17,012 bases of DNA from an uncultured Christensenella sp. GTDB taxonomy: Bacteria > Bacillota > Clostridia > Christensenellales > UBA1242. This document shows, one piece after another, positions 3,001 to 17,012 of the stretch. The notes under the pieces are model-generated. The model was not told where the DNA came from. It saw only the letters and a program-made list of their open reading frames with translations, and searched no databases. The stretch covers positions 1-17,012 of the forward strand of contig CASFHZ010000047.1 in the NCBI GenBank assembly GCA_949294585.1, written 5' to 3'. Positions within the stretch are counted from its first letter, which is position 1; the number at the start of each line of letters is the position of its first letter. Made by a program: the position numbers and the translations under genes.

Positions 3001-6000
3001 TGATTATAGAAAATGTAATTTTGTTCATTGTTGTTTAGGTATTGAATAGGTGACAGGTTTGTGTCGGCAAGGGCATTTACATTTGTTAGGTATATTGTGT
3101 AAATGGTTATGTTGCCAGCCAAATCTTTTTCAACAATTTCAATATATTTGTTGTAACTATTTTGGTTGCTTAACAGTTCTGTTAATTTCATTTCATCTAA
3201 TGTGTCAAAATTATTAGTTGAATTTTCCACTGCACTTGGTGATGTTTCTTGTGTGTAGATATCATTGTATTTGGTGTTTACAATATTTCCATTAACTGTT
3301 GTTTCAAAAAATCTGTAAAGAATTGTGTAAGCATCTCCGTTTAAACTTGATGTTAAATCAATCAAATCTCTAATGTTGCTTGCATCAACGGAATAAGCAT
3401 AGTATTTATAAAGTCCAGAAGCAACAGAAGTGTTGTATTTTTGTTGTACATTTCTTAAAAGATTTTCATTTATTCCCGTTAAAGAAACCAATGTGTTTAT
3501 ATTTTTTGTTGGAGCAACTGTGTCAACAACAATTGTTCTTGTTGTTTTAAATTTTCCTGCATTATAATCTGATTCTTTTCCCTCAAATTGCATTGTTATT
3601 GAAATAACTGAATCATTATTGTATGCACCAATATCTGTTAAACTTAAATCAACATAATTATATCTATCATTTGTTTGAATAGAATCGGGATTTATTGTTT
3701 TTGATTCGCCACCATTAACAGAATAGGTTATGGCTGATTTATTGATTATTGACATAAACTCGTTTGAAGAATCTGTCCAAGCAAGTCTTATTGTTTCTTG
3801 ATTTGTGTAATAGTTGTTATTTGCGTATTTTAACTCTTCATTGTTTGTTGGGTTTAAAACTTCAAAAGATGGTTCTTCCTCTGTTATTCTAAACATAAAA
3901 CTAAATGAGTTTGCACCATATGGCAAATAGCCTTGTTCAATTGTAACTTTGTAATAACCAATTTCGGTGAATGTTATTCCCGATTTTTCTGGTTCATCAT
4001 AGAATTTTAGGTAACCGTTAGAACCAACAGAGCTATAATAGATTTTTGAAGGTTGGTCTATGTTTGAAAGTTCAAAACTATATCTAATTTCTGCATTTAA
4101 TGCATATGATTGAATAACACTGTTGCTAACATCTGATGGGTTATATGAGTTAATACTGTTTTCTGTGTTAAATGTTCCACCATCTGTTAATGAATATCCA
4201 TATTTAACAACTGGAATGTAAACGAAAACAGGAAGTTTGTTTGTTTCAAGAATTACTGTGTTTTCTGCTGAGTTGTTGCTTGCAATGTATATGTCCTCAA
4301 AAAACATTTTGTTGTCTTCTTCAAGAACTTGAATCTTAATTGATTCTCCAACATAACTATATGTGCTTGAACTTTCATCAACAACAACAGGTGAGGTTAT
4401 TATTCCGTTTCTGTCAACTATAAATGTTAATGTTCTTATCATATAGTCCAAACTTCCACTAACTTTGTTTTGCGTTCCTGTCATATTGCAGTATGTTCTT
4501 GTTATTGTATATTTTCCTGCTTTTGTTTGATAGGAGTTTGTTTTTGGATTGTACTCTTTGTTTATTTCCCAAATATACATACTATTTTCTTGTGTTAGTG
4601 ATTTGTTTTCATTTGGATTGCTTCTTGAATAAATTGTATATTCTTCGCTAGATTCAACAAATTGATATGTGTATGCAGAACTTGTATCATTTGTTATGTT
4701 TTTGCTTGCAAATTCGCTAAACTTATAAGTTATTGATTCAACTTCAATTATTCCTTCTTCTGGAACAGGATTAAACATTAATTTAAGAATTTCATTGCTG
4801 TCTTTTAATGTGTTAATTGTTGTTGGAATATAGAATTTATCTTTTTTAGTGTAATTTGTTTCAAGGTCAATTGATGCTTCTGGATTATATGCATCTTGAC
4901 TTAAATAGGTTTGTTGATTGTTTTTTGTGTAAATTAATTCGGTTAGTGATGCATCAAAAGATATTTTTAAACTATGTGTTCCTGAATAATTTTTTAGATA
5001 GTTATTAACTGATATTTCATCTTGACCTAATATTGTTTTTGTGTTTACTGAATCTCTTATGTAGAAATTGTATTCATTTTCTTGCTTGTCGTTAATAACA
5101 TAAGAATAATTGTTTTCTTCTGTTCCTTGAATAAATTTACTAACACCGTTTATTGAAAGCAAGACATTTGTGTTTATCTCTGATATAGTAAAGCAGGTGT
5201 TAACTGTGTTTATTGACATTGTTGTGAAGTATTTACTAAAAATGTCCGTTGTGTCAAAAACATTTTTTAACCATTCATCTGCAATATTGAAATTTCCACC
5301 TGCATATGATAGATTATTGAATTTTATAACTTTATATCTACCCCAAGAAACAGTTACATCAGATGATAATATATTAAGTTCACTTGGTTCAACATATTCT
5401 CCATTAACTTCTTGTAATATTTTTGCACTTGTTGTGTCTATTATAAACGAAAAGTATTGTTCATTGCCAGCACTATCTTTTATTCTAAACACATACATTC
5501 CTGCCTCTGTTAAAACATTTGTTGATGGAATATAGTTAAAATCTTTTGAGTTTTGATAGGTTACACTTGTTAGTGTAGTGTTGTTATAATCAAAATAGTA
5601 TTCAACAGGAACAGCATCATAACTGTAATATTGTTTTAACACTGTTGAAGTAAAGTTTGTTGATGTGTCCATAACAAGTGGAATGAATTTGTATTCTGCA
5701 ACAATTTCACTGCCACTTGCTTTGTTGTTCCAAGAAACAGCAACTGCTTGGTTTGTCCAAAAATCTATTTCGTTGTTTCTTGTGTAGTAGTTAGAGTTTT
5801 CAAGTTTTGATACAGCAAATATTTGTATGTTCTCTATATTTATATTATCAATTGTGAATGTTGAAGAGTAACTTCTTGAAAGGTTTTTGCCAAAGTACAT
5901 TGTAACAATATATCTTCCATTTTGTGTTGCAGTAAATTCTTCGTTTGAATTTATTGTTTGAACTTCAACATAATTTCCTGAATAATTGTTTTGCAAATAA

Positions 6001-7562
6001 ACAACCAATTTTGTTTTTGCATTAAAGGTAGATGTAGATGGCTCATCTTTTTTTATAATAACACTTTGATTTGTGTAAGCACCATCAAGAAGAACAGTGT
6101 TATCTTGTGTTTTTATAGACATTTGAGCAGTTTCTTTTGTCAATTCAAAAACAAACCATTGACTAAACAAATGCTCTTCTTCATCATCGCCAATTAATGA
6201 AGTTGGAACAATATCTGTGCTTCCTGTTAGTGATGAGTAGAATTTATAAACAACTTTAACTATGTAAATTCCAGAATCAGTTATTGGTCTGTTGTCATAA
6301 GATTGTTTTGCTGGGAGATTGTCAACAGTGTATTCATTGTTTTCAAGTTTAACTGGGTCAAGTTGCCAATATCCACTTTGGGTGTCAACAACAGTACTAT
6401 TTTCAGAATTAAATATTTCAACATTATATCTAAATTGAACAGGTGCTTGATTTGTTTGTTGTATGCTTAAAGATTTATCACTTATTTTTGCCAAAATATT
6501 GGTTAAATTTGTTTCTTCTGTGTTGTTTAGTGATGTGTGATAACCATTAGTAAGAAAACTTATGTCTGTGTATTCATCATCAATAACTCCGTTTGTGTAA
6601 GTTTTAAATTCTTTTAAATCAGATGTTTCTGAATCTGAATAATACAGTTGATATCCAAAAATTTCCAACATATCAGTTCTTTTGCTGATGTTTGTGCTTG
6701 ATGGGTTAAGGTTATCAACATTATTTCCATAGGTGTAAATGAAATTGTATTTTATTGTGTAAGTGCCAAGGTCATTAAAAATTATTGAAACAAGGTTGTT
6801 GTCTGGATTTTCAACAATCGACACCAAGTTGTTGTCGGTGTTAAGGTTTGTTCCATCAAACCATATATTTTGAGTTTTTGTAACTTTTTGGAATGTTTTT
6901 GTAATTTCAACAGTTATGTTCTTTTTGTTTATTGTTAGGGTAGGTAATAAATTATTTGAGTTGCTATTTTGATAGTTATATTGAAAAACACGGTCGTATA
7001 GTATTGATGAGTTTGAAGGTGAAAAGGCATTGTCGAACTGATATTGAACATAAGTGCCGTTGTAGTAATTTGTTTCCATCAAAACATAATAGGTGTAGTC
7101 AAAAGATTTTGTTGTTTGACTTCCGTTTTCTGTAACAGTGTAATCAAAATGTAGTTCATATTTTCCACAAGGATTTGCACCATTGTCAAAAGTTGATTCA
7201 ATAAGAAGTGAAATTCCGTTATATGTAATTTTTATTCCATTTTGCTCAAGCACTTCATTTGTGTAAGAAGAGCCATTAAATGAAAAATAATATGAAATAT
7301 GCACAATTGGATTTTCACCACTTATGTTTGATTGTGCGTGAAAATCTGCCTTAACAGTTTGTGAATTTGTTACATATGCAACTTCACCATTGCTGATTGA
7401 GGCAATGGCAGACTGTCCCGAATATTGAGTAACAGTAAAATACTCACATTCTGTTTCTGCAAAAACTTCATTTTGCTTTTCAGAAAAAGAACACACGCCA
7501 CAAATGGCAAGTGATAAAATAGCAAAAATAAATAATTTTTTAAATAAACTAAATTTTTTCAT
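45..7562 (-). CDS. Giant surface protein of about 2505 aa, rich in Asn, Thr, Ser and Tyr. It has an N-terminal signal peptide and a C-terminal transmembrane anchor with a KR-rich tail. Putative adhesin or cell-surface protein.
   Basis: The minus-strand ORF is uninterrupted. The maximal ORF starts at 7598, but the ATG at 7562 gives a canonical signal peptide (MKKFSLFKKLFIFAILSLAICGVCS, with a VFA/E cleavage-like site) and is preceded by a GGGGTG Shine-Dalgarno-like stretch. The C-terminus is VSIIVIVVVSVVVVGLTILFILLRKRMKIK, hydrophobic followed by positive residues. There is no LPXTG motif and no obvious internal tandem repeats. The composition is typical of beta-rich surface proteins. Confidence 0.9.
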   Translation of the reverse strand: MKKFSLFKKLFIFAILSLAICGVCSFSEKQNEVFAETECEYFTVTQYSGQSAIASISNGEVAYVTNSQTVKADFHAQSNISGENPIVHISYYFSFNGSSYTNEVLEQNGIKITYNGISLLIESTFDNGANPCGKYELHFDYTVTENGSQTTKSFDYTYYVLMETNYYNGTYVQYQFDNAFSPSNSSILYDRVFQYNYQNSNSNNLLPTLTINKKNITVEITKTFQKVTKTQNIWFDGTNLNTDNNLVSIVENPDNNLVSIIFNDLGTYTIKYNFIYTYGNNVDNLNPSSTNISKRTDMLEIFGYQLYYSDSETSDLKEFKTYTNGVIDDEYTDISFLTNGYHTSLNNTEETNLTNILAKISDKSLSIQQTNQAPVQFRYNVEIFNSENSTVVDTQSGYWQLDPVKLENNEYTVDNLPAKQSYDNRPITDSGIYIVKVVYKFYSSLTGSTDIVPTSLIGDDEEEHLFSQWFVFELTKETAQMSIKTQDNTVLLDGAYTNQSVIIKKDEPSTSTFNAKTKLVVYLQNNYSGNYVEVQTINSNEEFTATQNGRYIVTMYFGKNLSRSYSSTFTIDNINIENIQIFAVSKLENSNYYTRNNEIDFWTNQAVAVSWNNKASGSEIVAEYKFIPLVMDTSTNFTSTVLKQYYSYDAVPVEYYFDYNNTTLTSVTYQNSKDFNYIPSTNVLTEAGMYVFRIKDSAGNEQYFSFIIDTTSAKILQEVNGEYVEPSELNILSSDVTVSWGRYKVIKFNNLSYAGGNFNIADEWLKNVFDTTDIFSKYFTTMSINTVNTCFTISEINTNVLLSINGVSKFIQGTEENNYSYVINDKQENEYNFYIRDSVNTKTILGQDEISVNNYLKNYSGTHSLKISFDASLTELIYTKNNQQTYLSQDAYNPEASIDLETNYTKKDKFYIPTTINTLKDSNEILKLMFNPVPEEGIIEVESITYKFSEFASKNITNDTSSAYTYQFVESSEEYTIYSRSNPNENKSLTQENSMYIWEINKEYNPKTNSYQTKAGKYTITRTYCNMTGTQNKVSGSLDYMIRTLTFIVDRNGIITSPVVVDESSSTYSYVGESIKIQVLEEDNKMFFEDIYIASNNSAENTVILETNKLPVFVYIPVVKYGYSLTDGGTFNTENSINSYNPSDVSNSVIQSYALNAEIRYSFELSNIDQPSKIYYSSVGSNGYLKFYDEPEKSGITFTEIGYYKVTIEQGYLPYGANSFSFMFRITEEEPSFEVLNPTNNEELKYANNNYYTNQETIRLAWTDSSNEFMSIINKSAITYSVNGGESKTINPDSIQTNDRYNYVDLSLTDIGAYNNDSVISITMQFEGKESDYNAGKFKTTRTIVVDTVAPTKNINTLVSLTGINENLLRNVQQKYNTSVASGLYKYYAYSVDASNIRDLIDLTSSLNGDAYTILYRFFETTVNGNIVNTKYNDIYTQETSPSAVENSTNNFDTLDEMKLTELLSNQNSYNKYIEIVEKDLAGNITIYTIYLTNVNALADTNLSPIQYLNNNEQNYIFYNQLNSNIDIFAKSSMQLTKVDMMGFDWNRITVNGTSYLKTPYSNSKYYNLTTYDPTNPTKSAVDLTEFATLLANSQKQNIVIGLVPFYNTITLSASVLNTSLSVIHTSSTSTYSNQEGILIKIPSSSSESDALIYAVDVKITQFIKNGDNSYTEEIIYSNNSDTYFKTPNQNLVNTSLISSSYVNYMGGTYLKIIVNSPTPNRFYKYIVTDNFSDTYPITNIYGSEKIDNEMYSSVDIIETYENGNQYYYSTKEIRFKYNSAKDNVILTVTTSYTSQLFDLSKQSGINAFNASGYGKLLIPTGDSVVYTIVMYEAEQDMAEGIIGGEIFFKLDIYEAIENISSGLPYRTINFVTYNIIPNITLYGIENDNQNGLFDKGTMYGNEIKITFRQDVGRFNCSVFLQYEDCTIEQISSGKVVSNPATYTLIIKYTNLFTDSQYDTYLDFTISDNDEDFYKVVYKVNGETYYAEATGSSFTYTEGNLTNSIQTHYILNTTEFEILYNTEQGIKEPVPSPVVVNGYTTYIYYLTNVGNDVGSNTYFTRTIAITVVPYTNNILSNYSHYTNEGTRTALSGTMSSFVVSIEENTSSYKRIAWKSYYGIPENKVNVTIYFGDNQTIYTPKTEISNDLTIITLTTSGTYYLTFSDLAGNVHMFDSSNSTYTIRYLRSVIFTVNGESPINNAVYDSEVRINIPSSTSKYYDSNAQPKLSALRNGVAYTPSIDSDNRSYLFTETGLYKVWFSASVTVDGNVTKINEEPTYFLIIRPNESRWAFEFSEYADYYVTKIIKNDEDITSQLTNENMGNLTYKTVQNSDGSPSLKPYLKNFLISIYDALTGAGRYTVTINTGNEFNQEFTFSFWINNTTAPISVSIAENKATTSPIIVSFNTSDLIEDVGDCVLKITGYSDLHISSDLLEQGTINPSYQISLENANTYYIQLYSESGKLLYSYRVIKNEPLNTVSIIVIVVVSVVVVGLTILFILLRKRMKIK

Positions 7563-7722
7563 AAAACACCCCATAATAATCATTAAAAATATTAGCATAT
7601 TTTTTGTGTTTTTACAAATATATTGTGTATATTTATTTAATAATTATTTTTATATATAACATAAATAATAAAAAATTAATAATATTAGTTATAATAAATA
7701 AAAAAACTATTATTATTGCAAC

Positions 7723-7786
7723 AAAAAAAAGAATATATCAAAGGTGAGATTAACCTCAAAAGTGATATATTCTTTTCATTTTTTTT
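7723..7786 (-). terminator. Rho-independent terminator between the T4CP gene and the giant gene. The hairpin is flanked by A8 and T8 runs, so it could act in both directions.
   Basis: The sequence is AAAAGAATATATCA (7727-7740), a 22-nt loop, then TGATATATTCTTTT (7763-7776), forming a perfect 14-bp AT-rich stem. It is preceded by AAAAAAAA (7723-7730) and followed by TTTTTTTT (7779-7786). It lies 5 bp downstream of the T4CP stop codon (7791-7793) on the minus strand. Confidence 0.5.
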
Positions 7787-7790
7787 ATTA

Positions 7791-9758
7791 TTAAAAATCA
7801 AAATCATCAAAAATATTTTTCTTGAATATTTTGGCATTTCTTTTCTTAATATCATAAAATATTTTTCTTTCATCTAAATGCTTTGATGGAGCATATTCTT
7901 CAGATGCTTTTCTTTGGTCCAAAACAGGATTTTTGAAGTATTGTGTCATTTTTGTCTTAATTGGAGGTCTGCCATATATTTTTACAATATTAACATCAAA
8001 TGGCAATTGTCCCAACTCATATGGTTCAATTAATGGCCTTGTAACAATTTGTGTTCCAACAGTTTTGGATTTATCTTTGTCATTTTTCTCAGAACGATTT
8101 TCTGAAACATTCTGAGTTTTTAATGTAACTTCGCCACACATTTTAGAAAATTCTTCTCTTGTTTTTTGGTCCTCTGTTCCAATAAATATTTGAATATTAC
8201 AGTTTCCTTTAATTGTGTCTGCAACTTCTTTTGTGTATTTATTGTCCAATTGACTATATGATTGAATTGCCAATTCAAAGAAAATTCTTCTTGAACGAGC
8301 AACTGTTATTATTGTGTCCATCTTTTCAATTTTTGGCAAGTTTGCAAACTCATCAAGCAAGAAGTAAACAGGTCGGTCCAATTGCAAATTTGGTTTTTGT
8401 GATGCTGTGTCAATTAATGTTTTATACATTTGAGAAATACACATTGTTGCAATGCTGTGTCTGCTTTCTTTTTCATCTGGAACTTTTATAAACAACACTG
8501 TTGGCTTTTCTGTGAAGTCTTCAAACGAAACATCTGTTGCACTTGTGCAATAACAAATACCCATATCTTGAAAAACTGCAATTTTTGGTTGCAAAACACC
8601 AAGGTAAGAACGGGTTGTGTTTGGTGCGTTGTTAACAACAGTGCTTGTTAGGGCAGGTACTTTTGACAACACATCTCTTCCACTTGTGTATTGTTGCAAG
8701 GTTTTCATCATATTGTCACCATCGGTGTCACGATGTGTTGCAATTTTTACAAGGTTATAAAAATTAAACTTTTCTCTTGTCATTCCAAGTTCTGGGTCCA
8801 AACTATCTTCAAGCATAGCAAGCATAAGTCCAAACAAAAAGTCCTGAGCACCTCTTTCCCAGCCTTGGTCGGTTTTACTTTCAACTGTTACAATTGTGCT
8901 TGCAATTTCACGAAGTTCGTTTTCAGCCTCATTGATTAAAGATTGTTTTTTTGCTTCAAGGTCTTGCATTAATCTATCTTTTGTTGGGTATGCAATTTTG
9001 TTGAAGCCATACCACACATTTCCATATGTGTCAGATATAATTCTGTAACCACCAACATCTTTTGGGTTTGAATTTTTGTAAACTTTAACTTCTTCTTCAA
9101 GATGGTGTGCTCTTGTGTACATAACAAATGCGTGGTCCATTGGATTCCATCTTGTTGAAGAATATGGATTACGAAGGTCAATTGTGATTATTCTGTAACC
9201 CTCTTCACGAAGTTGAATAGAGTGGTTATTATACAGTTCGCCTTTTGGGTCGGTTATAACCATACAAGGTTTTTCTGCCGAGTGAGCATATACTCTTATT
9301 GCTGGGTCCAAAACAAAAGTTGTTTTACCAGAACCTGTTGTTCCAATAATAAGAGTGTGAATAGGGTTATACATATTGATGTACATTTTGCCATTTTTGT
9401 ATAAACTTCTAATCATAACTCCAGTTTTTTTAAGTTTTGGAAGTTGGTTAAATGTTGTTGGCATATATGCCTGGTCAGTTAATAACTCTTGTTCAGAAAC
9501 AAAACGAGCTTCATAGTGCTGAGCCATTTTTTCACCAGTTTGAGTTTTTCCCGTAAAACCTTCAGTGTCCGTTGTTGTGCTTTTTGATGATGAAACCATA
9601 TACAAAATAACAGCAAGAATACCAAGTCCAAAAATAACGAGAGCTGTTGTGCTACTTAGTGCTTGCACAAAATCAATCTCTTCAATTAACATTGATGCAA
9701 CAACACCAACGATGTATGCAATTAAAGCAAAAATTATGGTGTTTCTAAATTTTTTCAT
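7791..9758 (-). CDS. Type IV secretion coupling protein (T4CP), TraG/TraD/VirD4 family, about 655 aa.
   Basis: There are two N-terminal TM helices (IIFALIAYIVGVVASMLI and ALVIFGLGILAVILYMV). Then comes Walker A (IIGTTGSGKTT), the family-typical ITDPKGE motif, and Walker B (VYFLLDEFANLPKI). The ATG at 9758 is preceded by GGAGG with a 5-nt spacer. The longer ORF back to 9785 would begin at a GTG with no RBS. These are established VirD4/TraG signatures. Confidence 0.9.
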   Translation of the reverse strand: MKKFRNTIIFALIAYIVGVVASMLIEEIDFVQALSSTTALVIFGLGILAVILYMVSSSKSTTTDTEGFTGKTQTGEKMAQHYEARFVSEQELLTDQAYMPTTFNQLPKLKKTGVMIRSLYKNGKMYINMYNPIHTLIIGTTGSGKTTFVLDPAIRVYAHSAEKPCMVITDPKGELYNNHSIQLREEGYRIITIDLRNPYSSTRWNPMDHAFVMYTRAHHLEEEVKVYKNSNPKDVGGYRIISDTYGNVWYGFNKIAYPTKDRLMQDLEAKKQSLINEAENELREIASTIVTVESKTDQGWERGAQDFLFGLMLAMLEDSLDPELGMTREKFNFYNLVKIATHRDTDGDNMMKTLQQYTSGRDVLSKVPALTSTVVNNAPNTTRSYLGVLQPKIAVFQDMGICYCTSATDVSFEDFTEKPTVLFIKVPDEKESRHSIATMCISQMYKTLIDTASQKPNLQLDRPVYFLLDEFANLPKIEKMDTIITVARSRRIFFELAIQSYSQLDNKYTKEVADTIKGNCNIQIFIGTEDQKTREEFSKMCGEVTLKTQNVSENRSEKNDKDKSKTVGTQIVTRPLIEPYELGQLPFDVNIVKIYGRPPIKTKMTQYFKNPVLDQRKASEEYAPSKHLDERKIFYDIKKRNAKIFKKNIFDDFDF

Positions 9759-10023
9759 TAATTCCTCCAAAATTAAATTTAACACACAGTGCTATTTTTT
9801 CTTTTACTTTTTTATTGTACTTAATATAAAAATATAAGTCAATTAAAAAATACTTTTTCGTTGCTAGTAAATTATTAATAAGAAACTAAGTAATTGTATT
9901 TTTTTCTATGTTAATATTATAATCACAGTGCAATAAATTTATTTTTTATTTAAAATGTTTTTTTACAATTTAATATTTTTTAAATAAAAATAAAAAAAAT
10001 TAAAAAAAATATTAAAAAATGTT

Positions 10024-10052
10024 TTGCGATTAATAAAATATGTGCTATCATA
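10024..10052 (+). promoter_or_regulatory. Candidate sigma-70-type promoter for the plus-strand membrane-protein genes.
   Basis: TTGCGA (10024-10029), then a 16-nt spacer, then TATCAT. It lies in the 342-bp divergent intergenic region. The surrounding AT-richness makes several alternative hexamers possible. Confidence 0.25.
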
Positions 10053-10127
10053 AAAGCGTAAATCAGTTTGCAATATGAATAATGTTTGTTTTTTTGCAAA
10101 TAAATAAAATAAATTTTGGAGGAAATT

Positions 10128-10502
10128 ATGAACGTATTTTTGACAAAAGTTGCTACATATTTAATGGGATTTAGTGGCATTCTTGCAGACGGCGACTGGA
10201 AAGACAGATTGGAAGGAACTCAATGGGCTTGGGTTGTTGACATTGTCAGCGCAATTGATACACTATTGTATCCATTACTAATTGTAGTTGGTGCCGCAGG
10301 AACAATTTATGCCGTTGTTATTGGTGTAAATATGGCAAGAGCTGATTCAACAGAAAAAAGAGAAGAAGCAAAGAAGAGATTAATTAATGTAATTGTTGGT
10401 CTTGCAATAATTATAGCTTTAATATTGTTCTTCAAATTATTCATATCTGTTATTGTTCCAGCATTCGTTCCAGAATCAACAGAAACAACACCAGTTGCTT
10501 AA
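10128..10502 (+). CDS. Small (124 aa) two-TM membrane protein. Putative T4SS component, VirB3/TcpE-like or VirB2-like.
   Basis: The ATG at 10128 is preceded by GGAGG (10118-10122) with a 5-nt spacer. The track's 10116 start is a TTG. Two hydrophobic helices (LLYPLLIVVGAAGTIYAVVIGV and LINVIVGLAIIIALILFFKLFISVIVPAFV) are separated by a short charged loop. It sits immediately upstream of the VirB6-like gene. The functional assignment rests on context only. Confidence 0.75.
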   Translation: MNVFLTKVATYLMGFSGILADGDWKDRLEGTQWAWVVDIVSAIDTLLYPLLIVVGAAGTIYAVVIGVNMARADSTEKREEAKKRLINVIVGLAIIIALILFFKLFISVIVPAFVPESTETTPVA

Positions 10503-10521
10503 ATTTTATTTGCAAAAAAAT

Positions 10522-10550
10522 AAAGCTCTGCCTTTGTGCAGAGTTTTTTA
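10522..10550 (+). terminator. Rho-independent terminator after the 124-aa gene.
   Basis: AAAGCTCTGC, a CTTTGT loop, then GCAGAGTTTTTTATT. The GC-containing 6-8 bp stem is followed by a T-run, 20 bp after the stop codon. Confidence 0.7.
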
Positions 10551-10625
10551 TTGTTTAAAAATTTGTATATTCTGTAATTTATTTACTAATTATATTAATA
10601 TTTATTTAAAAATTTGAAAAAAATA

Positions 10626-10654
10626 TGTACAAGTGAAAAAATATTTGCTATAAT
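10626..10654 (+). promoter_or_regulatory. Candidate promoter for the VirB6-like gene.
   Basis: TGTACA (10626-10631), a 17-nt spacer, then TGcTATAAT (-10 at 10649-10654). The RBS GGGAGGAG at 10682-10689 lies 10 nt before the ATG at 10700. Confidence 0.35.
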
Positions 10655-10699
10655 AATTAAAAAAATAACAAAATAATTGCAGGGAGGAGAATAACTCAG

Positions 10700-12943
10700 A
10701 TGGATTTTGGTGTATGGGTTATGGATTTGATTTACATTATACCCAAGTTATTATATTTTTTGTGTTCTATGTGCACAATGGTTATTGATTTGTTGCAATT
10801 GCTTTTCAGAAAATTTGCTGGACTTGATACATATTACATAAATGGAAGCGAAGTTTCTGGTGAAATAATAGATGGTGCAACTCAACAAGGTTCTGGTGAT
10901 ATGATTCTTCAAATTATAAACAAAACCTTTTTGGATACAGAAAATTCTGTTATTGCAGTTGCATTTTGGAGTATAATTTTGCTGGCTGCAATTTTGCTTG
11001 TTATAACAACAGTGGCAGCAATAATCAAAAACGAATATTCACCTGATAAGGAAAAGAAAAATTCAAAAACTGGAATTGTTATAAACTTCTTTAAGGCAAT
11101 ATTTTCATTTGCAATAATTCCAATTGCTTGCTATTTTGGAGTTTGGTTTGGCAATATTGTTCTGTTTGCAGTTGATTCTGCAATTTCACCAACTGTTACA
11201 GCAATTTCCGAAACAGAAGAAATAAATGATAAAATTGTCTTTGATGAATCCACGGGTTCACCTGCATATTATTGCTTTATGGGTGAGGCCGTTCCTGCAA
11301 AATTCACACCACTAAGTGGCTACATATCAAAAGTTTGTTTATACAATGGAAGCAGAGTTAGAGTTGATGATACTTTCTATGAAACTGTAATACTAGCCGA
11401 TGATGTGAATAACACAACAACAAACTTTGGAATGTTCAATAGTGATGCACTTCAAACAAAAGAAGATGTTGCCAGTGCAATTGATAATGTATTTATGATA
11501 AATGCAAGGTTAAAAACTCCACAAAAACTAAATCACATTAATCAAGACCCGGGATATATTTTTATCCAAAATGGCACGGTGGAATACTTTGACAAAACAG
11601 ATGTTGGTTTGGTGTCGTACTACTATAATCTTTGGTACTATAACTTCCCAATTGCAATTGTGTTTATCATTGTAATTGGAAAACTTATGGCCGAGTTTGT
11701 GTTTGGACTTATGACTCGTTTGATAACAGTGCTTGCACTTTTGTTAATTGGACCAATCACAATGTCATTTATGCCACTAGATGGTGGAAGTGCATTAAGC
11801 GATTGGAAAAAAGAATTTATTGTTAGAGTAATGTCATCATACATTTTAATACTTGCAATGAATATATTTTATCTAATACTTCCTGTTTTGGACACAATAA
11901 CTTTCTTTGGGACAAGTTCAGGACTAGCTTGGGTGGATTACATTATAAAAACATTGTTTGTAATTGCAGGTTTAATGTCGGTTAAAACAATAATCAAATT
12001 GTTTAATGGAATAATAAAGGTTGACAAAGCAAAGAGTTCAATTCTTGACGATGGTGGTGCAGCAATGTCGGGCACTTTGGGAATGGCAAAGAAAACAACT
12101 GGTATGGCTATTTCTGGTGCAAGGGCAATTGGAGGCTTAGGTCTTGCAGGAGTTGGATTGGCAGGAATGGCAATTGGTGGAGCAACAGGTGGAATAGGCA
12201 AAGGAGTTAACTACTATCAACGAAGAAAAGAACAACAAGCACTTAACTCAACAACTGCACACGGAAATGCATCAGATAGTCAACTAAAAGATAATGTAGT
12301 GTTGTTTGCTCAGGACAATATTAAAAATCAAGTACAACAAGATTATGATGCTGAACTTAACAAGAGAAGTATGGAAGCATATAAGAGAGCATATGGTAAC
12401 AATCCAAAAATTTCTTTTGAAGATTATAAAAATGCAAATGTTGAAGGTTCATATAGACAGGCAGAAGATTATTACTATAACGAAATGACACCAGAGGAGA
12501 GGCAAAAAATCAGCATAGGTGACTACACAAAACAAGTTTATGAAAACAGTCAATTTGCAAATACAATGTCATATAAGAAATGGAAGGCAATTGGTTATCT
12601 TGATGTAATGCACGATAAAGATTCTTATCAAAATGTTGTGAAAGGTCTTTCAGATTATAAAGAAAATCGAGAATCTCAAATTCAGTCAGACATATACAAT
12701 GCAATGCAAACTGGTGTTGCAAACAATCAACTAGAAAGAGATGCAATTGATGACTACAACAACCTAGTTCAACAAAGATCAAAAGCAAGAACAGATTCTT
12801 CAGAGCACGCAAAAAAACTGCACGAACTTGAAGAAAAGGACAAAAACAGAAGATGGAGAATGGCAAGAATGGGTTCAAAAGCAGTACAAAGTGGTATGGG
12901 TAATGTGTTTAGATCTGTAAATGGTATAGCTGGTAAGAAGTAA
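10700..12943 (+). CDS. Polytopic membrane protein (747 aa) with VirB6/TrbL-like, TcpH-like topology. It has a C-terminal glycine-rich segment and a charged, helical tail.
   Basis: There are about 7 predicted TM segments, with a roughly 150-aa hydrophilic loop after the third. After the last TM comes GMAISGARAIGGLGLAGVGLAGMAIGGATGGIGKG, then a roughly 250-aa domain rich in K, E, Q and D. The gene is adjacent to the T4CP gene. There is no diagnostic motif, so the family call is inferred from topology and context. Confidence 0.8.
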   Translation: MDFGVWVMDLIYIIPKLLYFLCSMCTMVIDLLQLLFRKFAGLDTYYINGSEVSGEIIDGATQQGSGDMILQIINKTFLDTENSVIAVAFWSIILLAAILLVITTVAAIIKNEYSPDKEKKNSKTGIVINFFKAIFSFAIIPIACYFGVWFGNIVLFAVDSAISPTVTAISETEEINDKIVFDESTGSPAYYCFMGEAVPAKFTPLSGYISKVCLYNGSRVRVDDTFYETVILADDVNNTTTNFGMFNSDALQTKEDVASAIDNVFMINARLKTPQKLNHINQDPGYIFIQNGTVEYFDKTDVGLVSYYYNLWYYNFPIAIVFIIVIGKLMAEFVFGLMTRLITVLALLLIGPITMSFMPLDGGSALSDWKKEFIVRVMSSYILILAMNIFYLILPVLDTITFFGTSSGLAWVDYIIKTLFVIAGLMSVKTIIKLFNGIIKVDKAKSSILDDGGAAMSGTLGMAKKTTGMAISGARAIGGLGLAGVGLAGMAIGGATGGIGKGVNYYQRRKEQQALNSTTAHGNASDSQLKDNVVLFAQDNIKNQVQQDYDAELNKRSMEAYKRAYGNNPKISFEDYKNANVEGSYRQAEDYYYNEMTPEERQKISIGDYTKQVYENSQFANTMSYKKWKAIGYLDVMHDKDSYQNVVKGLSDYKENRESQIQSDIYNAMQTGVANNQLERDAIDDYNNLVQQRSKARTDSSEHAKKLHELEEKDKNRRWRMARMGSKAVQSGMGNVFRSVNGIAGKK

Positions 12944-12991: not shown

Positions 12992-13682
12992 AATACACAC
13001 TATAAAAAAGTTCATTCAATTTGTCGTGTTGTTTTGCAATCATTACTTGCTTTGGAGAAATTATTTGATTTTGTTTTAAAATAAGTTCGTTATTTTTTCC
13101 AATGATGTCTTTTGATAGTTTTTTGCCTATTAAAATGTCACTATTAACAGTTAATTTTGATGGCATTAACTTTTGCTCGGGTTCTTCCATTTTCATAACA
13201 CTAACTGTTAAATTCTTTAACAAATCTTCATTATTTTTTGTGTATCTTGGCTTAAAATTGCAAAATTTTACATTTTCGCCAACAACAATGTTGTCCAATA
13301 TTGATATGATGTTTTTTGGAGCAATTTTTTCATTTTTATTGGTGATAAAGGAAGTTATGCAATAATTTTCATCAAATTCCAAATCAGATAAAATGCCATA
13401 ATTTTTGCCATCAACACCAACAACAATTTTGCCAATTGGTGACAATGGTTTGTCCAACATAAATTCATTTGAAATTTTTGTTGTGTTTTTTATTACAACA
13501 AAATCTTTTATACTATATACATTTTGAATTTTTAAAAAATATTCGTTCTCATCTTGGTCAAAAAAATAAATTCCCAACACTTTGTCTTGTTTTTCATTAA
13601 AGGCAATTTCGTTAACAGTTCCCAAAAATTTAGTATTGTAAATGGAAAACACTTGTTTGCCAATTATTTCAGATAGTTTCAT
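12990..13682 (-). CDS. PRC-barrel domain protein (YlmC/YmxH-like) with two tandem PRC-barrel-like repeats plus a C-terminal extension. 230 aa.
   Basis: The N-terminus MKLSEIIGKQVFSIYNTKFLGTVNEIAFNEKQDKVLGIYF fits the YlmC/YmxH pattern (L-E-x-G-K-x-V, then G-x-[LV]-x-D-[LI]). A second copy is PIGKIVVGVDGKNYGILSDLEFDENYCITS...ILDNIVVGENV. GGAGG sits 4 nt upstream of the ATG at 13682. Confidence 0.8.
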   Translation of the reverse strand: MKLSEIIGKQVFSIYNTKFLGTVNEIAFNEKQDKVLGIYFFDQDENEYFLKIQNVYSIKDFVVIKNTTKISNEFMLDKPLSPIGKIVVGVDGKNYGILSDLEFDENYCITSFITNKNEKIAPKNIISILDNIVVGENVKFCNFKPRYTKNNEDLLKNLTVSVMKMEEPEQKLMPSKLTVNSDILIGKKLSKDIIGKNNELILKQNQIISPKQVMIAKQHDKLNELFYSVY

Positions 13683-13770: not shown

Positions 13771-14874
13771 ATGGGAATTTTTAGTAATTTAAAACAAATG
13801 TTTTCAAGTGATATAAAACCTGACACAACAAAAATGACAGGTCTTGTTTATCCTTATCCATTAAAACATAACTCCATAAAAATAAACTCAAAAGTATTTG
13901 TCCCAAAAGGTTATTCCTTTGTTATTGGCTACAATGGCAGAGCACTTGACACTTTTGGTGAAGGTGAGTACTTTCTAAGTCCTGCAACTTTGCCAGAATG
14001 TTGCAAAAGATTAAAAATACACAAGTCAACAAAAAAGGGAACAGTAAAAAAGCAGTTCAAAGCAAATGCCTATTTTGTTCAACAAAATGAGTATGTTTTT
14101 AACTTTAAAACACAAGAAAAGGCCGAACTTGGAAGAAAAGCAAGTGGAATTTTTAAAGTTGGATTAACTGCCAATGTTAAAATAAAAATTGTTGACAGCA
14201 AAAAATTCTTAGCATCTATGCTATTTGAGTTTGCATACTTAAAACAAAATGAGGCAGAAAAAATACTCGGTTATTTAACATCGGACTATGTTGTTAATAT
14301 TTTAAGTAAATATAACTTTGCACTTTCGGAGTTTATAAATTCAAATGATGTTATTGTTGATAATATTTCTTGTGAACTTGCACAAAAATATAACAAACTT
14401 GGAATAATGCTATTAGATTTCTATAATGTTAGATATTTGCTACCCAAAAAATATATGAGTGAATACGAAGAAAACTTGCAAAAAATTGAAGAAAATGCTA
14501 GGAGTAAAGAAGTTGATAACAACGAAAATGAAGCTAATCAAAACAATGCAACAAATGATGTTATAGAAGACTATAAACCATATGGAAACATAGAAATTCA
14601 AGATTTAAAAAATGCACAAACTAAAGAAGAAACACAAAAAATTGACACAGAACAATGTGAAAATGACAAAAATGATGTAGAAATTGAAGAAAATCAAAAT
14701 CAACAACAACAAAATGAAGAAAAATCACAAGAATTTATAGACTTAAATTTGGATAATTTGTATAATACAAAAGCAAATAATGGCAAGCAATGCAAATATT
14801 GTGGATTAGTAAATTCAAACGATGCAGAAGTTTGCGAATTATGTGGAAATAAATTAGGAGGCGAAAATGAATAA
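13771..14874 (+). CDS. SPFH/Band-7 family protein (Band_7_1-like, the family often annotated as 'virion core protein-like') with a C-terminal zinc ribbon. 367 aa.
   Basis: It starts MGIFSNLK and continues LVYPYP...GEGEYFLSPATLP, which resembles the Band_7_1 pattern (MGxF...VYRFP...GPGRYTL). It ends CKYCGLVNSNDAEVCELCG, a CxxC-x11-CxxC motif. An acidic N/E/Q-rich linker precedes the zinc ribbon. The track ORF extends back to 13642, but that would overlap the divergent gene and its RBS. Confidence 0.75.
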   Translation: MGIFSNLKQMFSSDIKPDTTKMTGLVYPYPLKHNSIKINSKVFVPKGYSFVIGYNGRALDTFGEGEYFLSPATLPECCKRLKIHKSTKKGTVKKQFKANAYFVQQNEYVFNFKTQEKAELGRKASGIFKVGLTANVKIKIVDSKKFLASMLFEFAYLKQNEAEKILGYLTSDYVVNILSKYNFALSEFINSNDVIVDNISCELAQKYNKLGIMLLDFYNVRYLLPKKYMSEYEENLQKIEENARSKEVDNNENEANQNNATNDVIEDYKPYGNIEIQDLKNAQTKEETQKIDTEQCENDKNDVEIEENQNQQQQNEEKSQEFIDLNLDNLYNTKANNGKQCKYCGLVNSNDAEVCELCGNKLGGENE

Positions 14875-15070
14875 AATAACAAAGGATTGGACACTTGGTG
14901 ATGTCCTAACAGAAAATGAAGATTTGGCAGATATATTGATGGGTTTTGGAATGCACTGTTTCAGTTGCCCACTAAGTCAAATGGAAACACTTGAAGAAGC
15001 ATCAGAAGCGCACGGTGTTGATGTTGATTTTCTTTTGGAAAAATTAAATGAAGCAAACAACTCTCTATAG
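14867..15070 (+). CDS. DUF1858-domain small protein (hybrid-cluster-protein-associated redox disulfide-like domain). 67 aa.
   Basis: MNKITKDWTLGDVL...GMHCFSCPLSQMETLEEASEAHGVDVDFLLEKLN matches the DUF1858 pattern (ITKDMTIGEVL...GMHCxGCPxSxxETLEEAxxxHGID). AGGAGG (14856-14861) lies 5 nt before the ATG. The start overlaps the upstream stop codon by 8 nt (ATGAATAA). Confidence 0.9.
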   Translation: MNKITKDWTLGDVLTENEDLADILMGFGMHCFSCPLSQMETLEEASEAHGVDVDFLLEKLNEANNSL

Positions 15071-15332: not shown

Positions 15333-15923
15333 ATGGAAGAATATATAACAAACAATAAAAAAGAATATTTGGATTTGGTTAAAAATAACATAAAAAGGGA
15401 AGGAATTGATAATTTAATAGATTGGTTGCAAAAAACTGATTTCTTTACTGCTCCTGCTTCAACAAAATACCATTCTTGCTATGAAGGAGGTTTGTGCAGA
15501 CACAGTTTAAATGTTTATAATAGATTTGTAAAAAACCTAAAAAACGAGTTTGGTGATGAATGGGAAAAACATTGTTCACTGGAAAGTGCAACAATAATTG
15601 CATTATTTCACGATTTGTGCAAAGTAGATTTTTATACTGTTGAAATGAGAAATGTTAAAGAAAATGGTATTTGGGTTCAAAAACCATATTATGCTGTTAA
15701 TGATAAACTTCCATATGGACACGGAGAAAAATCTGTTTATATAACAAGTAGTTTTATAAAACTAACTAGAGATGAAGCAATGAGTATAAATTGGCATATG
15801 GGTGAATACGATGCAAGAGCAAAGGGTGGAGTTAGTTTGTCGGACATTTACTATAAATACCCAGTTGCTTTTCTGTTCCACCTATCAGATAATATGGCTA
15901 CATATCTTGATGAAACAATGTAA
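15333..15923 (+). CDS. HD-domain phosphohydrolase. 196 aa.
   Basis: Metal-binding motifs H..H (YHSCYEGGLCRHSLNV), HD (IIALFHDLCKV) and a downstream D (WHMGEYD) are present. The RBS is strong. Confidence 0.85.
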   Translation: MEEYITNNKKEYLDLVKNNIKREGIDNLIDWLQKTDFFTAPASTKYHSCYEGGLCRHSLNVYNRFVKNLKNEFGDEWEKHCSLESATIIALFHDLCKVDFYTVEMRNVKENGIWVQKPYYAVNDKLPYGHGEKSVYITSSFIKLTRDEAMSINWHMGEYDARAKGGVSLSDIYYKYPVAFLFHLSDNMATYLDETM

Positions 15924-16042: not shown

Positions 16043-16104
16043 TGAAATGCATTATATAAAAAAGAATGCAGATATTAAAATAAGTAATAAAAATGGGAGG
16101 AGAG

Positions 16105-17012
16105 ATGAAAAGCAAATTAAAGATAGTTGCAATGCTTAGTGCAATGTGTTTTGTTGTTTTTATGCTAACAGTTGGCGTGCTCAGTTTAAAAAATGTTGAT
16201 GTAAATGTTGGTGGAAGCATAAACTATTCAGCAAACGGAGTTATGGCAACAATTTCAAATGGTGTACTTGAAAACAATGCAAGTAATGTAACAGGCAAAA
16301 TGCAAGGGTTTACGGTTGAGTTAAACCAAGATGAAAGTGCAATTCAAAGTGCATTAAACAGTTGGTCAGGTTTAGAGTTGCAATTTAACGAAAACGGTGA
16401 TGATGTAACAATAACATTCAGTGTAACAAACAATCACACAACCGACTATTTGCAAGTTAACATAGAAGTTGATGCAGGCACACCAACAAACGCAACAGTT
16501 GGTGTTAATAGCAACAATAATACCCTATCACCAAGCACAGTTAGTGATGGAAGTAATGCATATACACATGTAATAACATTTCATATAGAGAATACGAACC
16601 TTAATGCAAGCATAAGCAATTTTGCCATAAGTGTTAACTTAACAAAGGGTGTAATACCATTAGAGTCAGATTATTCATACTTAACATTTACTAAAGATGA
16701 ACAATCTCTAACAGCAAGTGTTACAGGTTTTGATAATTCAGTAAGTGAAGTAAATATACCATCAAAAATAAAAGATGATAAAGATGATAATGGAAATGTT
16801 TATACAGTAACAGGTATAGGAAGTCGTGCATTCGAGGATTGCACAAATTTAGCAAGTGTAACAATCCCAGACAGTGTAACAAGTATAAGATATAATGCAT
16901 TCGATGGTTGCAGTGGCTTAACGAGTGTAATAATAGGTAATGGTGTAACAGATATAGAAAGTTCTGCATTCTCTGGTTGCACTAGTTTAACAAGTGTAAC
17001 AATCCCAGACAG
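16105..17012 (+). CDS. Secreted or surface protein with BspA-type leucine-rich repeats. It is 5'-partial, open at the window end, so at least 302 aa.
   Basis: I translated this myself; it is absent from the ORF track because no stop codon falls within the window. It begins MKSKLKIVAMLSAMCFVVFMLTVGVLS, a signal peptide or N-terminal anchor. Then comes a roughly 230-aa N/T/S-rich region. It ends ...GIGSRAFEDCTNLASVTIPDSVTSIRYNAFDGCSGLTSVIIGNGVTDIESSAFSGCTSLTSVTIPD, which is classic BspA/LRR_5 repeats. GGGAGGAG lies 3-4 nt before the ATG. Confidence 0.85.
   Translation, partial: MKSKLKIVAMLSAMCFVVFMLTVGVLSLKNVDVNVGGSINYSANGVMATISNGVLENNASNVTGKMQGFTVELNQDESAIQSALNSWSGLELQFNENGDDVTITFSVTNNHTTDYLQVNIEVDAGTPTNATVGVNSNNNTLSPSTVSDGSNAYTHVITFHIENTNLNASISNFAISVNLTKGVIPLESDYSYLTFTKDEQSLTASVTGFDNSVSEVNIPSKIKDDKDDNGNVYTVTGIGSRAFEDCTNLASVTIPDSVTSIRYNAFDGCSGLTSVIIGNGVTDIESSAFSGCTSLTSVTIPD

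Follow-up and report, generated by a model that had tools for sequence, protein, structure and literature searches.

To our knowledge, nearly all type IV secretion systems (T4SSs) known in Gram-positive bacteria belong to mobile elements, and the presence of T4SS-type genes in a 17,012-nucleotide stretch of DNA from an uncultured Christensenella sp. (contig CASFHZ010000047.1; the whole stretch is referred to here as the window) raises the question of whether they belong to such an element or to the chromosome. A first-pass annotation of the window alone favoured a mobile element, and interpreted three genes as a fragment of an integrated conjugative element (ICE) or plasmid. Comparison with related loci leads us to a different reading, which we consider the probable one: the genes form a vertically inherited, chromosomally fixed and domesticated T4SS module of the MPF_FATA class, similar to that of mycoplasma ICEs, that is paired with a fibre of immunoglobulin-like (Ig-like) domains and probably acts in contact-dependent transfer. 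All of the sequences compared are metagenome-assembled genomes (MAGs) and metagenome contigs.

The module and its chromosomal site

The module contains four large genes organized as two divergent pairs, with a VirD4/TraG-type coupling protein (T4CP) followed by a giant surface protein gene in the leftwards direction, and a VirB2-like pilin followed by a VirB6-like membrane protein gene in the rightwards direction (Table 1). The T4CP, pilin and VirB6-like open reading frames (ORFs) are situated where the first-pass annotation had placed them and all are homologous to T4SS parts, but the module as it was described there was incomplete, lacking the 2,517-aa gene at 45-7598 (-) that is part of the same conserved block. 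The boundary suggested at about 12.95 kb coincides with the right-hand end of the module, and in the window clade just 46 bp separate the VirB6-like stop from a convergent PRC-barrel gene. The window has a GC content of ~30%, a scan for tRNAs found none, an Rfam scan gave no matches, and there are no credible small ORFs in the intergenic regions. The absence of a relaxase, VirB4 and hydrolase from the window was also noted correctly; none of its proteins matches a relaxase family among the Pfam and NCBIfam profiles, and tblastn with three VirB4 queries (best E ~2) detected no VirB4 remnant.

Table 1. Features of the module in the window, and the VirB4 genes of its relatives. Positions refer to the window unless a locus is named.
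Feature	Position	Strand	Description
Putative giant surface fibre	45-7562	-	~2,505 aa from ATG 7562 (MKKFSL...); ORF to 7598 = 2,517 aa
Hairpin and U-run, likely terminator or attenuator	7717-7783	-	Inverted repeat immediately past the T4CP stop and before the giant gene
VirD4/TraG-type T4CP, 655 aa	7791-9758	-	Two N-terminal transmembrane helices, all-alpha domain, Walker A and B
AT-rich divergent control region	9759-10127	.	Between the T4CP/giant and pilin/VirB6-like pairs
VirB2-like T4SS pilin, 124 aa	10128-10502	+	Leader ...GILA|DGDW, then two-helix transmembrane hairpin, conserved basic loop ARADSTEKREEAKKR
Terminator-like hairpin and T-run	10522-10547	+	After the pilin gene
Promoter-like site	10626-10654	+	Ahead of the VirB6-like gene
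VirB6-like protein, 747 aa	10700-12943	+	Transmembrane core, extracellular loop, Gly-rich linker, helical cytoplasmic C-terminal domain
VirB4 of relatives	L033:1-2182, L034:1354-4008, L031:11452-14202, L007:12904-15606		Directly after the VirB6-like gene

When one genome per GTDB species was scanned, 21 loci were identified, all in uncultured Clostridia (several deposited as Christensenella, Catabacter or Christensenellales), and 13 of them have the window-type arrangement. MAGs with a block of the window type include GCA_944376825.1, GCA_964323475.1, GCA_002308915.1, CALWDZ01, CAMEJD01, CALWTD01 and DJER01. The loci and contigs of relatives are designated L001-L041, and L040 is a second contig from the window's own organism. 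The conserved gene order is giant gene, T4CP, pilin, VirB6-like, PRC-barrel, SPFH, DUF1858, HD, (FeoA), DnaI, DnaB, peptidase M1, ..., Pth and Mfd, and it is kept, either whole or as far as contig coverage allows, in L001, L004, L006, L009, L010, L015-L023, L035, L037 and L041. Contigs with the conserved block reach 191 kb, and the VirB6-like homologues on them are only 31-56% identical. Three of three loci reached through the flanking PRC gene in metagenome contigs likewise carry the block, although two of these duplicate known loci.

The remainder of the presumed element had been expected to the left of position 1; the leftward sequences consist instead of the giant gene, itself part of the module, and then sporulation and housekeeping genes. 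In L009, the closest relative (giant protein 87% identical), the giant gene is followed on its left by YpeB, SleB, SpoIIR, SipL, Veg and HisS, and in L010 by TrxB, rubrerythrin, YchF, CysS and Tex. L040 extends 895 nt to the left of window position 1 and contains there only a gene for a 146-aa protein with a transmembrane (TM) segment and a zinc ribbon. The YpeB, SleB, SpoIIR, SipL and Veg flank is common to L009, L033 and L034, and because L033 and L034 are deep relatives whose left flank nonetheless matches that of L009, the module evidently occupies one chromosomal place across deep divergence.

Neither the surroundings of the block nor its pattern of divergence suggests mobility. Pfam annotation of the genes up to 10 kb to the left and right in relatives revealed no further T4SS genes and no relaxase, integrase, recombinase or VirB4, synteny of the block extends to all of the relatives recovered, and the only repeats around it are imperfect and AT-rich, with no exact direct repeats of the kind expected of att sites. 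The module DNA has no match among the 72,556 plasmids of PLSDB. Pairwise identity matrices of module and flanking genes are closely correlated (Pearson 0.92-0.99; among clade members the PRC, HD and SPFH flank proteins are 55-98%, 67-99% and 45-97% identical, respectively), and GC content at third codon positions (GC3) is 0.21-0.24 for the module genes and 0.19-0.25 for the flanks. All module ORFs are intact, and the ratios of nonsynonymous to synonymous substitution (dN/dS) relative to L009 are 0.05 for the T4CP, 0.06 for the giant gene, 0.11 for the pilin and 0.25 for the VirB6-like gene, compared with 0.04 for the flanking PRC and HD genes. The first-pass annotation had offered a reduced or decayed module as an alternative; with these ratios and intact frames it is not decayed, although it is reduced in that a VirB3-VirB4 gene is absent. 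The site, the co-divergence with neighbours, the GC3 and dN/dS values and the lack of plasmid relatives lead us to reject both the ICE or plasmid reading and that of decay, by the refuting conditions that the first-pass annotation itself had set, and judging from the sequence comparisons the module appears to be vertically inherited, fixed in the chromosome and not mobile.

The module proteins and a VirB4 in deeper relatives

The T4CP is the best-conserved gene of the neighbourhood and is unambiguously of the VirD4 type. Its ORF spans 7791-9785 (-) and encodes 664 aa from a GTG codon, but the ATG at 9758, preceded by a GGAGG sequence, is the likely start; the resulting 655-aa product matches the public gene call on L040. 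The TraG/VirD4 motifs reported previously are fully borne out by scores of 189 bits to PF02534 (cutoff 20.1), 122 to PF12696 (22) and 107 to PF10412 (20.5), by a score of 285 bits to NF045973 (cutoff 250) that places it in the CD1115 family of VirD4-like proteins, and by intact Walker A (GTTGSGKT, residue 139) and Walker B (YFLLDE, residue 465) motifs. The TM helices are at residues 7-25 and 37-55. Identity is 83-100% among clade members and 83-92% across species, whereas the nearest plasmid T4CPs are only 28-31% identical, with a maximum of 31% among 705 plasmid matches in PLSDB.

The pilin ORF opens at a TTG at 10116, and the gene likely begins at 10128. Its product has a signal-peptide-like leader, which is predicted to be cleaved, followed by TM helices at ~40-71 and 92-110, and in an alignment with relatives the loop ARADSTEKREEAKKR is highly conserved; identity within the clade is 64-91%, or 65-100% in the pairwise comparison of clade members. 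The protein scores 38.9 bits against the Pfam T4SS_pilin family PF18895 (cutoff 26.6), and is thus assigned to it, but 34.4 bits against the equivalog model NF045849 (Mbov_0395 pilin-like; cutoff 40), such that it is a relative and not an equivalog-level member. The first-pass annotation was correct as to the 124-aa length and the two TM helices, but had likened the protein to VirB3, TcpD or TcpE; because the PF18895 score is above the cutoff we regard it as VirB2-like. The VirB3 analogy was not unreasonable, given that a 2025 review calls the corresponding mycoplasma ICE proteins VirB3-like (PMC12857230). According to the same review, Patescibacteria are the one exception to a lack of VirB2-type pilins in Gram-positive T4SSs. 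We also note that three pilin-like genes are clustered at L007:8152-9989 (99 aa, 96 aa, and 283 aa with a pilin-like N-terminus), which recalls the VirB2-like pilin arrays of Patescibacteria.

The relationships of the 747-aa VirB6-like protein are more complex. The first-pass annotation had described it as polytopic with a large extracytoplasmic loop and a C-terminal extension, and this VirB6-type topology holds, with a ~160-aa loop (about 160-315), a Gly-rich linker (465-502) and a C-terminal domain of ~230 aa (about 500-725). A Pfam scan gave no match, an exact look-up of the protein sequence found nothing, and the scores against the two relevant NCBIfam models (the NF045848/NF045889 pair) are below their cutoffs, at 84.7 bits for MMCAP2_0566 (cutoff 90) and 57.6 bits for Mbov_0396 (cutoff 70). 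Its homologues do pass, with 126 bits for L034 and 119 and 103 bits for L033, and when the window protein is compared by blastp with those of L033 and L034 the E values are 7e-46 and 7e-32. A profile search of 1.84 billion representatives recovered 3,335 family members (1,041 at E<=1e-30), and when ten representatives were sampled, nine passed NF045848 (MMCAP2_0566) and six NF045889 (Mbov_0396). Because homologues and sampled members pass the cutoffs, the family assignment holds by transitive homology, and the protein is a somewhat divergent member of the mycoplasma-ICE-type VirB6-like family. An AlphaFold model built with 27 homologues (pLDDT 77.5) has a membrane core of helices and a loop of ~160 residues that mixes alpha and beta structure; the Gly-rich linker is disordered, and the C-terminal domain is long and helical.

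Among clade members the VirB6-like proteins are 31-91% identical, and the dN/dS comparison with L009 indicates that the excess of change is concentrated in the cytoplasmic C-terminal domain, which is 24-50% identical to L009 compared with 66-78% for the membrane core and 92% for the T4CP. VirB6/TraG-type proteins are the specificity targets of entry exclusion in some conjugation systems. No match to the VirB6-like protein is present in the 72,556 plasmids. Elsewhere, two to four tandem VirB6-like paralogues are found among housekeeping-type genes (L024:2908-7398, L028:4344-11436 and L029:9089-15763), all of which open with a ...F..IPQF.YF.Y... motif. The stretches examined in L028 and L029 contain no T4CP, VirB4 or pilin, whereas in L024 a pilin and a T4CP are directly upstream.

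The giant protein has an N-terminal signal peptide, ~2,450 extracellular residues that are rich in N, S, T and Y and in which DxAGN motifs recur, and a C-terminal TM anchor with a basic tail. It matches no Pfam or NCBIfam family. Pairwise identities are 48-99% among clade members, full-length homologues are 46-87% identical, and in every case the T4CP is adjacent. Collinear distant homologues of 2,400-2,800 aa are present beside the T4CP in L007, L030, L033 and L034, where they are recognisable mainly in the C-terminal 430 residues; the giant and T4CP genes are therefore neighbours in five divergent lineages whose T4CPs are only 38-44% identical. The AlphaFold model of residues 1400-2517 (pLDDT 82.5) is a chain of beta-sandwiches ending in a TM helix, and its top matches in Foldseek are GhpA, a grappling-hook fibre (E 2.7e-15), and SbsB, an S-layer protein (E 9.4e-10). 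With the signal peptide, the TM end, the modelled beta-sandwiches and these matches, the protein is predicted to be a long, membrane-anchored surface fibre of Ig-like domains. GhpA of Aureispira and SbsB-type S-layer proteins share with it a long chain of Ig-like beta-sandwich domains but only ~10% sequence identity and TM-scores of ~0.1 (as the chains are flexible), a generic likeness of fold that makes them structural analogues only, and they have no known functional link to T4SSs. Its position beside the T4CP in five lineages, together with its low dN/dS, argues that the giant protein is a working partner of the T4SS.

Deeper relatives contain a fuller cluster. The order in L033 and L034 is VirB4, VirB6-like, pilin, divergent T4CP, giant, Rho-like, YpeB, SleB, SpoIIR, SipL, Veg ... 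Spo0A, with T4CPs 38-44% identical to that of the window; an equivalent cluster is present in L007 and partial ones in L031 and L030. The VirB4 of these relatives carries an N-terminal VirB3-like TM hairpin (M..IPRKTK...) and we interpret it as a VirB3-VirB4 fusion on that basis. It scores 580.6 bits over its full length against NF045975 (Mbov_0397 ICE conjugal transfer ATPase, 'VirB4_plasma'; cutoff 590) and 154 bits against the clostridial CD1110 model, and at E<1e-100 the family comprises at least 245 clusters, with contigs as long as 665 kb. The window clade does not have a complete T4SS at this site, VirB4 being absent from the window and from 10 kb on either side in clade members, and the distribution shows that the VirB3-VirB4 gene was lost from the cluster in this clade. 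A search with the L034 VirB4 is of limited reach here: the matches listed are all at least 61% identical and all from the wider lineage of L034, and since other deep-lineage VirB4s are ~50% identical to that of L034, a VirB4 of the window clade would fall below the matches listed. A protein of ~720-780 aa is also encoded in or beside the cluster (L030:7533-9866, L031:6631-8946 and L033:4567-6735) and is absent from the window clade; lipoprotein-type signal sequences are predicted in the L030 and L031 copies. The 722-aa L033 copy was considered as a second VirB6 paralogue and rejected, with an hhalign probability of 0.2.

Known systems, a possible role and competing readings

The T4SS of mycoplasma ICEs (MICE, such as ICEA of M. 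agalactiae) is, by sequence and gene order, the closest known system. In MICE, CDS5 encodes VirD4, CDS15 a small TM protein, CDS16 a VirB6-like protein, CDS17 VirB4 and CDS14 a surface lipoprotein. The best-scoring curated models are those of mycoplasma proteins (Mbov_0395 for the pilin, MMCAP2_0566 and Mbov_0396 for the VirB6-like protein, and Mbov_0397 for the VirB4 of relatives), and the order of small TM protein or pilin, VirB6-like and, in the relatives, VirB4 is that of the consecutive locus tags Mbov_0395, 0396 and 0397. Both are minimal sets with no VirB1-like or VirB8-like protein or recognised relaxase (PMC6030558; PMC12857230). The MICE system is encoded by a cluster of TM-protein genes from CDS5 to CDS19, in which the essential lipoprotein CDS14 promotes contact between donor and recipient (PMC6030558), and its machinery supports an oriT-independent chromosomal transfer in which the T4SS is required only in the recipient (PMC6819513). 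There are also clear differences. MICE are mobile, with a DDE transposase, excision and variable copy number, whereas the block described here has no recombinase, a fixed site, and hosts that are walled, spore-forming Clostridia; the surface partner in MICE is a lipoprotein and not a 2,500-aa TM-anchored Ig-like fibre; and in the window clade VirB4 is absent from the cluster and the pilin and VirB6-like proteins fall below the NCBIfam cutoffs.

In the lifestyle of the locus, the closest parallel is the T4SS of Patescibacteria such as Ca. Southlakia epibionticum, a resemblance that is functional and organisational only. These systems are chromosomal, mostly relaxase-less and MPF_FATA-derived, with VirB2-like PF18895 pilins, and have been read as exapted for a host function (PMC12102498; PMC12857230); the T4CP is often unlinked from virB4 (PMC12102498). 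Patescibacteria are a different phylum, whereas the loci described here are from Bacillota (Clostridia) with sporulation genes, in which the T4CP is the component that varies least and no VirB4 is encoded in cis; nor is a link to a conserved giant fibre gene mentioned for Patescibacteria in the available portions of these sources (PMC12102498; PMC12857230). Among the conjugative T4SSs of Firmicutes (the CD1115/CD1110 family of C. difficile CTn elements, plasmids of C. botulinum and Bacillus, and pLS20 p028), the CD1115 family includes the window T4CP by its cutoff and pLS20_p028 has a weak likeness to the VirB6-like proteins of relatives, but the T4CPs of plasmids are only 28-31% identical, and here there is no relaxase, VirB1-like or VirB8-like protein and no mobility. 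The Hodor megaplasmids of the human gut likewise combine a T4SS with a cryptic VirB6 and conserved giant signal-peptide surface proteins thought to aid transfer; they encode VirD4, VirB4, VirB6, proteins of ~2,640 aa and >7,300 aa, SecYEG and trigger factor (bioRxiv 10.64898/2026.02.21.707213). Hodors differ in their size of >300 kb and in having Rep_3, ParABM, a MOB_H relaxase, sortases and ~45% GC (45-47%), none of which is seen at this ~30% GC locus.

Retention at one chromosomal site under strong selection suggests that the module does a job for its host. Assembly into a T4SS, the direction of transfer and the substrate are matters that we infer, and a plausible scenario is as follows. The VirB6-like protein would form a channel in the membrane, and the VirB2-like pilin would build a short conduit or pilus through the wall, with the terminator-like hairpin after its gene allowing higher pilin expression. 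A hexameric VirD4-type ATPase would recruit and energise the substrate on the cytoplasmic side, with the long and fast-evolving cytoplasmic tail of the VirB6-like protein as its probable docking point. The fibre, anchored by its C-terminal helix and with a reach that we roughly estimate at ~100 nm when fully extended, would hold a partner cell, in a role resembling those of the CDS14 lipoprotein of MICE and the surface module of Hodors. The job itself is most likely an exchange of DNA among cells of the lineage that depends on contact but needs no relaxase; we favour DNA because the closest relatives in sequence, the MICE T4SSs, support oriT-independent transfer and because the module has no relaxase or oriT partner. 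Transfer of proteins or nutrients, by analogy with what has been proposed for Patescibacteria, would be the main and a serious alternative. A further proposal is that the module is a core organelle run by the VirD4-type ATPase alone, with VirB4 nowhere in the genome, for relaxase-independent distributive exchange of chromosomal DNA or some other contact-dependent exchange; we regard it as rather unlikely.

Several points weigh against this reading of the locus as a domesticated T4SS. VirB4, the sole ATPase held to be common to all T4SSs, is found neither in the cluster nor within at least 10 kb to its left or right in this clade, and the four genes alone may for that reason be unable to secrete. 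We identified neither a substrate nor a relaxase, and likewise no VirB1-like hydrolase and no VirB8-like protein. The window's VirB6-like protein falls just below both NCBIfam cutoffs, and a Foldseek search of its model against the PDB returned nothing significant, the top match being R388 TrwI/VirB6 with a probability of 0.33. The conserved adjacency of the giant gene is no proof of a physical or functional link. The comparisons are wholly of MAGs and metagenome contigs, and 'core genome' status is here a count, with no denominator, of the clade members that carry the block.

Of the other explanations, the one closest to ours keeps a domesticated T4SS but assigns it another role, whether delivery of proteins, uptake of molecules from a partner cell, or adhesion and the display of a pilus, with VirB4 supplied from elsewhere in the genome. 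The locus is chromosomal and relaxase-less with VirB2-like pilins (including the trio in L007), as are the essential T4SSs of Patescibacteria (PMC12857230), whose T4CPs are often encoded far from virB4 (PMC12102498); T4SS parts are also dispersed among the relatives, with a pilin and VirB6-like gene but no T4CP in L026 and only VirB6-like paralogues in L028 and L029. However, there are no effector candidates in cis, sporulation genes are present and the organisms are not known epibionts, the closest sequence models are those of DNA-conjugation systems, and the T4CP that was not essential in Ca. Southlakia (PMC12102498) is the best-conserved gene here. We thus hold this explanation to be a possible but clearly less favoured one. 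It is less likely still that the giant protein is a mere neighbour, similar to an adhesin or S-layer protein, and that the T4SS genes are left over, non-functional or restricted to a minor membrane role. No Pfam domain ties the giant protein to T4SSs, and both the VirB4 and the ~750-aa lipoprotein of the relatives are missing, but this is difficult to reconcile with giant-T4CP adjacency in five lineages whose T4CPs are 38-44% identical, or with purifying selection on all four genes that extends to a 7.5-kb giant ORF with a dN/dS of 0.06 and a T4CP at 0.05.

The two explanations that invoke mobile DNA are both very improbable. Three of the proteins do belong to conjugation families and T4SS genes can lie far apart in real elements, such that VirB4, relaxase and integrase genes of an ICE or plasmid might have been outside of the window, as the first-pass annotation proposed; yet the genes on either flank are those of sporulation, replication or translation, a relaxase, integrase or VirB4 is absent up to 10 kb away, the same site is occupied in at least 13 species-level genomes, identity co-varies with that of the neighbours, GC3 equals that of the flanks, there are no att repeats, tRNA or plasmid relatives, and the T4CP is at most 31% identical to those of plasmids but 83-92% within the clade. 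That the contigs derive from Hodor-like conjugative megaplasmids of gut Bacillota has no more to recommend it. Hodors do combine a T4SS, a hard-to-detect VirB6, giant surface proteins and housekeeping-like genes, and because they carry SecYEG and trigger factor, housekeeping-like neighbours alone do not prove a chromosomal location. The neighbours here, though, include Spo0A, SpoIIR, SipL, YpeB/SleB, Veg, HisS, CysS, YchF, Tex, DnaB-DnaI, Pth and Mfd, and in distant relatives they include GpsA, a class II tRNA synthetase and further genes that by eye are of translation or ribosome type; neither Rep nor Par nor a MOB_H relaxase is seen, the nearby HD protein being a 196-aa phage-type phosphohydrolase and not MobH; the GC content is ~30% against 45-47%; and the Hodor giants carry S-layer and MBG domains, whereas that of the window has no Pfam match.

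On our preferred reading, the locus is a relaxase-less, T4SS-derived module with a VirB2-like pilin, fixed in the chromosomes of uncultured Clostridia and paired with a conserved 2,500-aa fibre, and a literature search aimed at chromosomal clostridial T4SSs of this kind found no description of one. If functional, it would extend the concept of exapted conjugation machinery from the epibionts of the candidate phyla radiation to mainstream gut Firmicutes, and would point to a possible mechanism of gene flow between chromosomes, or of interaction between cells, in gut Clostridia, as well as providing a natural test of a T4CP working without a neighbouring VirB4, or without any.

Control regions and neighbouring genes

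The first-pass annotation had noted a 342-bp AT-rich spacer between the divergent pairs. It is indeed AT-rich and divergent, but 369 bp separate the two ATG codons, the shorter figure being counted from the GTG end of the T4CP ORF. The T4CP and pilin genes have GGAGG ribosome-binding sites within mirror-image 5' regions that form an inverted repeat. A motif with a TTTGCAAA core at 10085-10104 recurs upstream in L001, L004 and L009, and is one arm of a 20-nt inverted repeat (95% complementary) that brackets the pilin gene, the second arm being at 10505-10524. Both arms are kept only in the closest relative, L009, and the TTTGCAAA core is itself palindromic; an invertible pilin cassette is for these reasons less likely than an operator-like site, and the repeat is possibly an operator. 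The hairpin that follows the T4CP stop folds at -19.6 kcal/mol (z -3.7; 0/200 shuffles are as stable), and the segment 10500-10565, in which the hairpin after the pilin gene is the main stem, folds at -15.5 kcal/mol (z -3.6). The hairpins, the promoter-like site and the TTTGCAAA motifs are consistent with separately tuned expression of the module genes, though no proof of function.

Directly after the giant gene, a Rho-like protein of 363-453 aa is encoded in four divergent lineages (L009:17684-18814, L007:4502-5659, L033:18513-19874 and L034:18068-19159). Although Rho_N and Rho RNA-binding domains are present, its scores reach just 24-82 bits where the Rho cutoffs are 315-509, and it could be either a nucleic-acid-binding partner of the module or a mere neighbour. 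In the window's own organism the 146-aa TM and zinc-ribbon protein seen on L040 takes its place.

To the right of the module, the HD protein (15333-15923, 196 aa) was considered as a cryptic MobH relaxase and rejected, as the similarity is confined to a 30-residue generic HD motif. The match to the MobH/TraI_2 N-terminal motif has E values of 0.006-0.04, the MobH score is 15.5 bits against a cutoff of 200, and no relative was found in the PDB. Its homologues (42-49% identity) are metal-dependent phosphohydrolases of phages, including Streptococcus phages Dp-1 and MS1 and gut phages; a protein of this type occurs on only two plasmids, both of them non-mobilizable, and in the clade the gene is conserved beside DnaI-DnaB.

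Among the other neighbouring genes, we note that the SPFH/Band-7 protein (13771-14874) has an acidic linker rich in Q, N and E and a C-terminal zinc ribbon; its ORF opens at 13642, where it overlaps the PRC gene, and the ATG at 13771 is the likely start. The next gene (14867-15070) encodes 67 aa, and its counterparts in relatives have the Pfam domain DUF1858. The region 16093-17012 encodes a signal-peptide protein with leucine-rich repeats of 23 aa (69 nt) that runs off the right end of the window, and since relatives have DnaI-DnaB at that position, it appears to be a lineage-specific insertion of a surface-protein gene.

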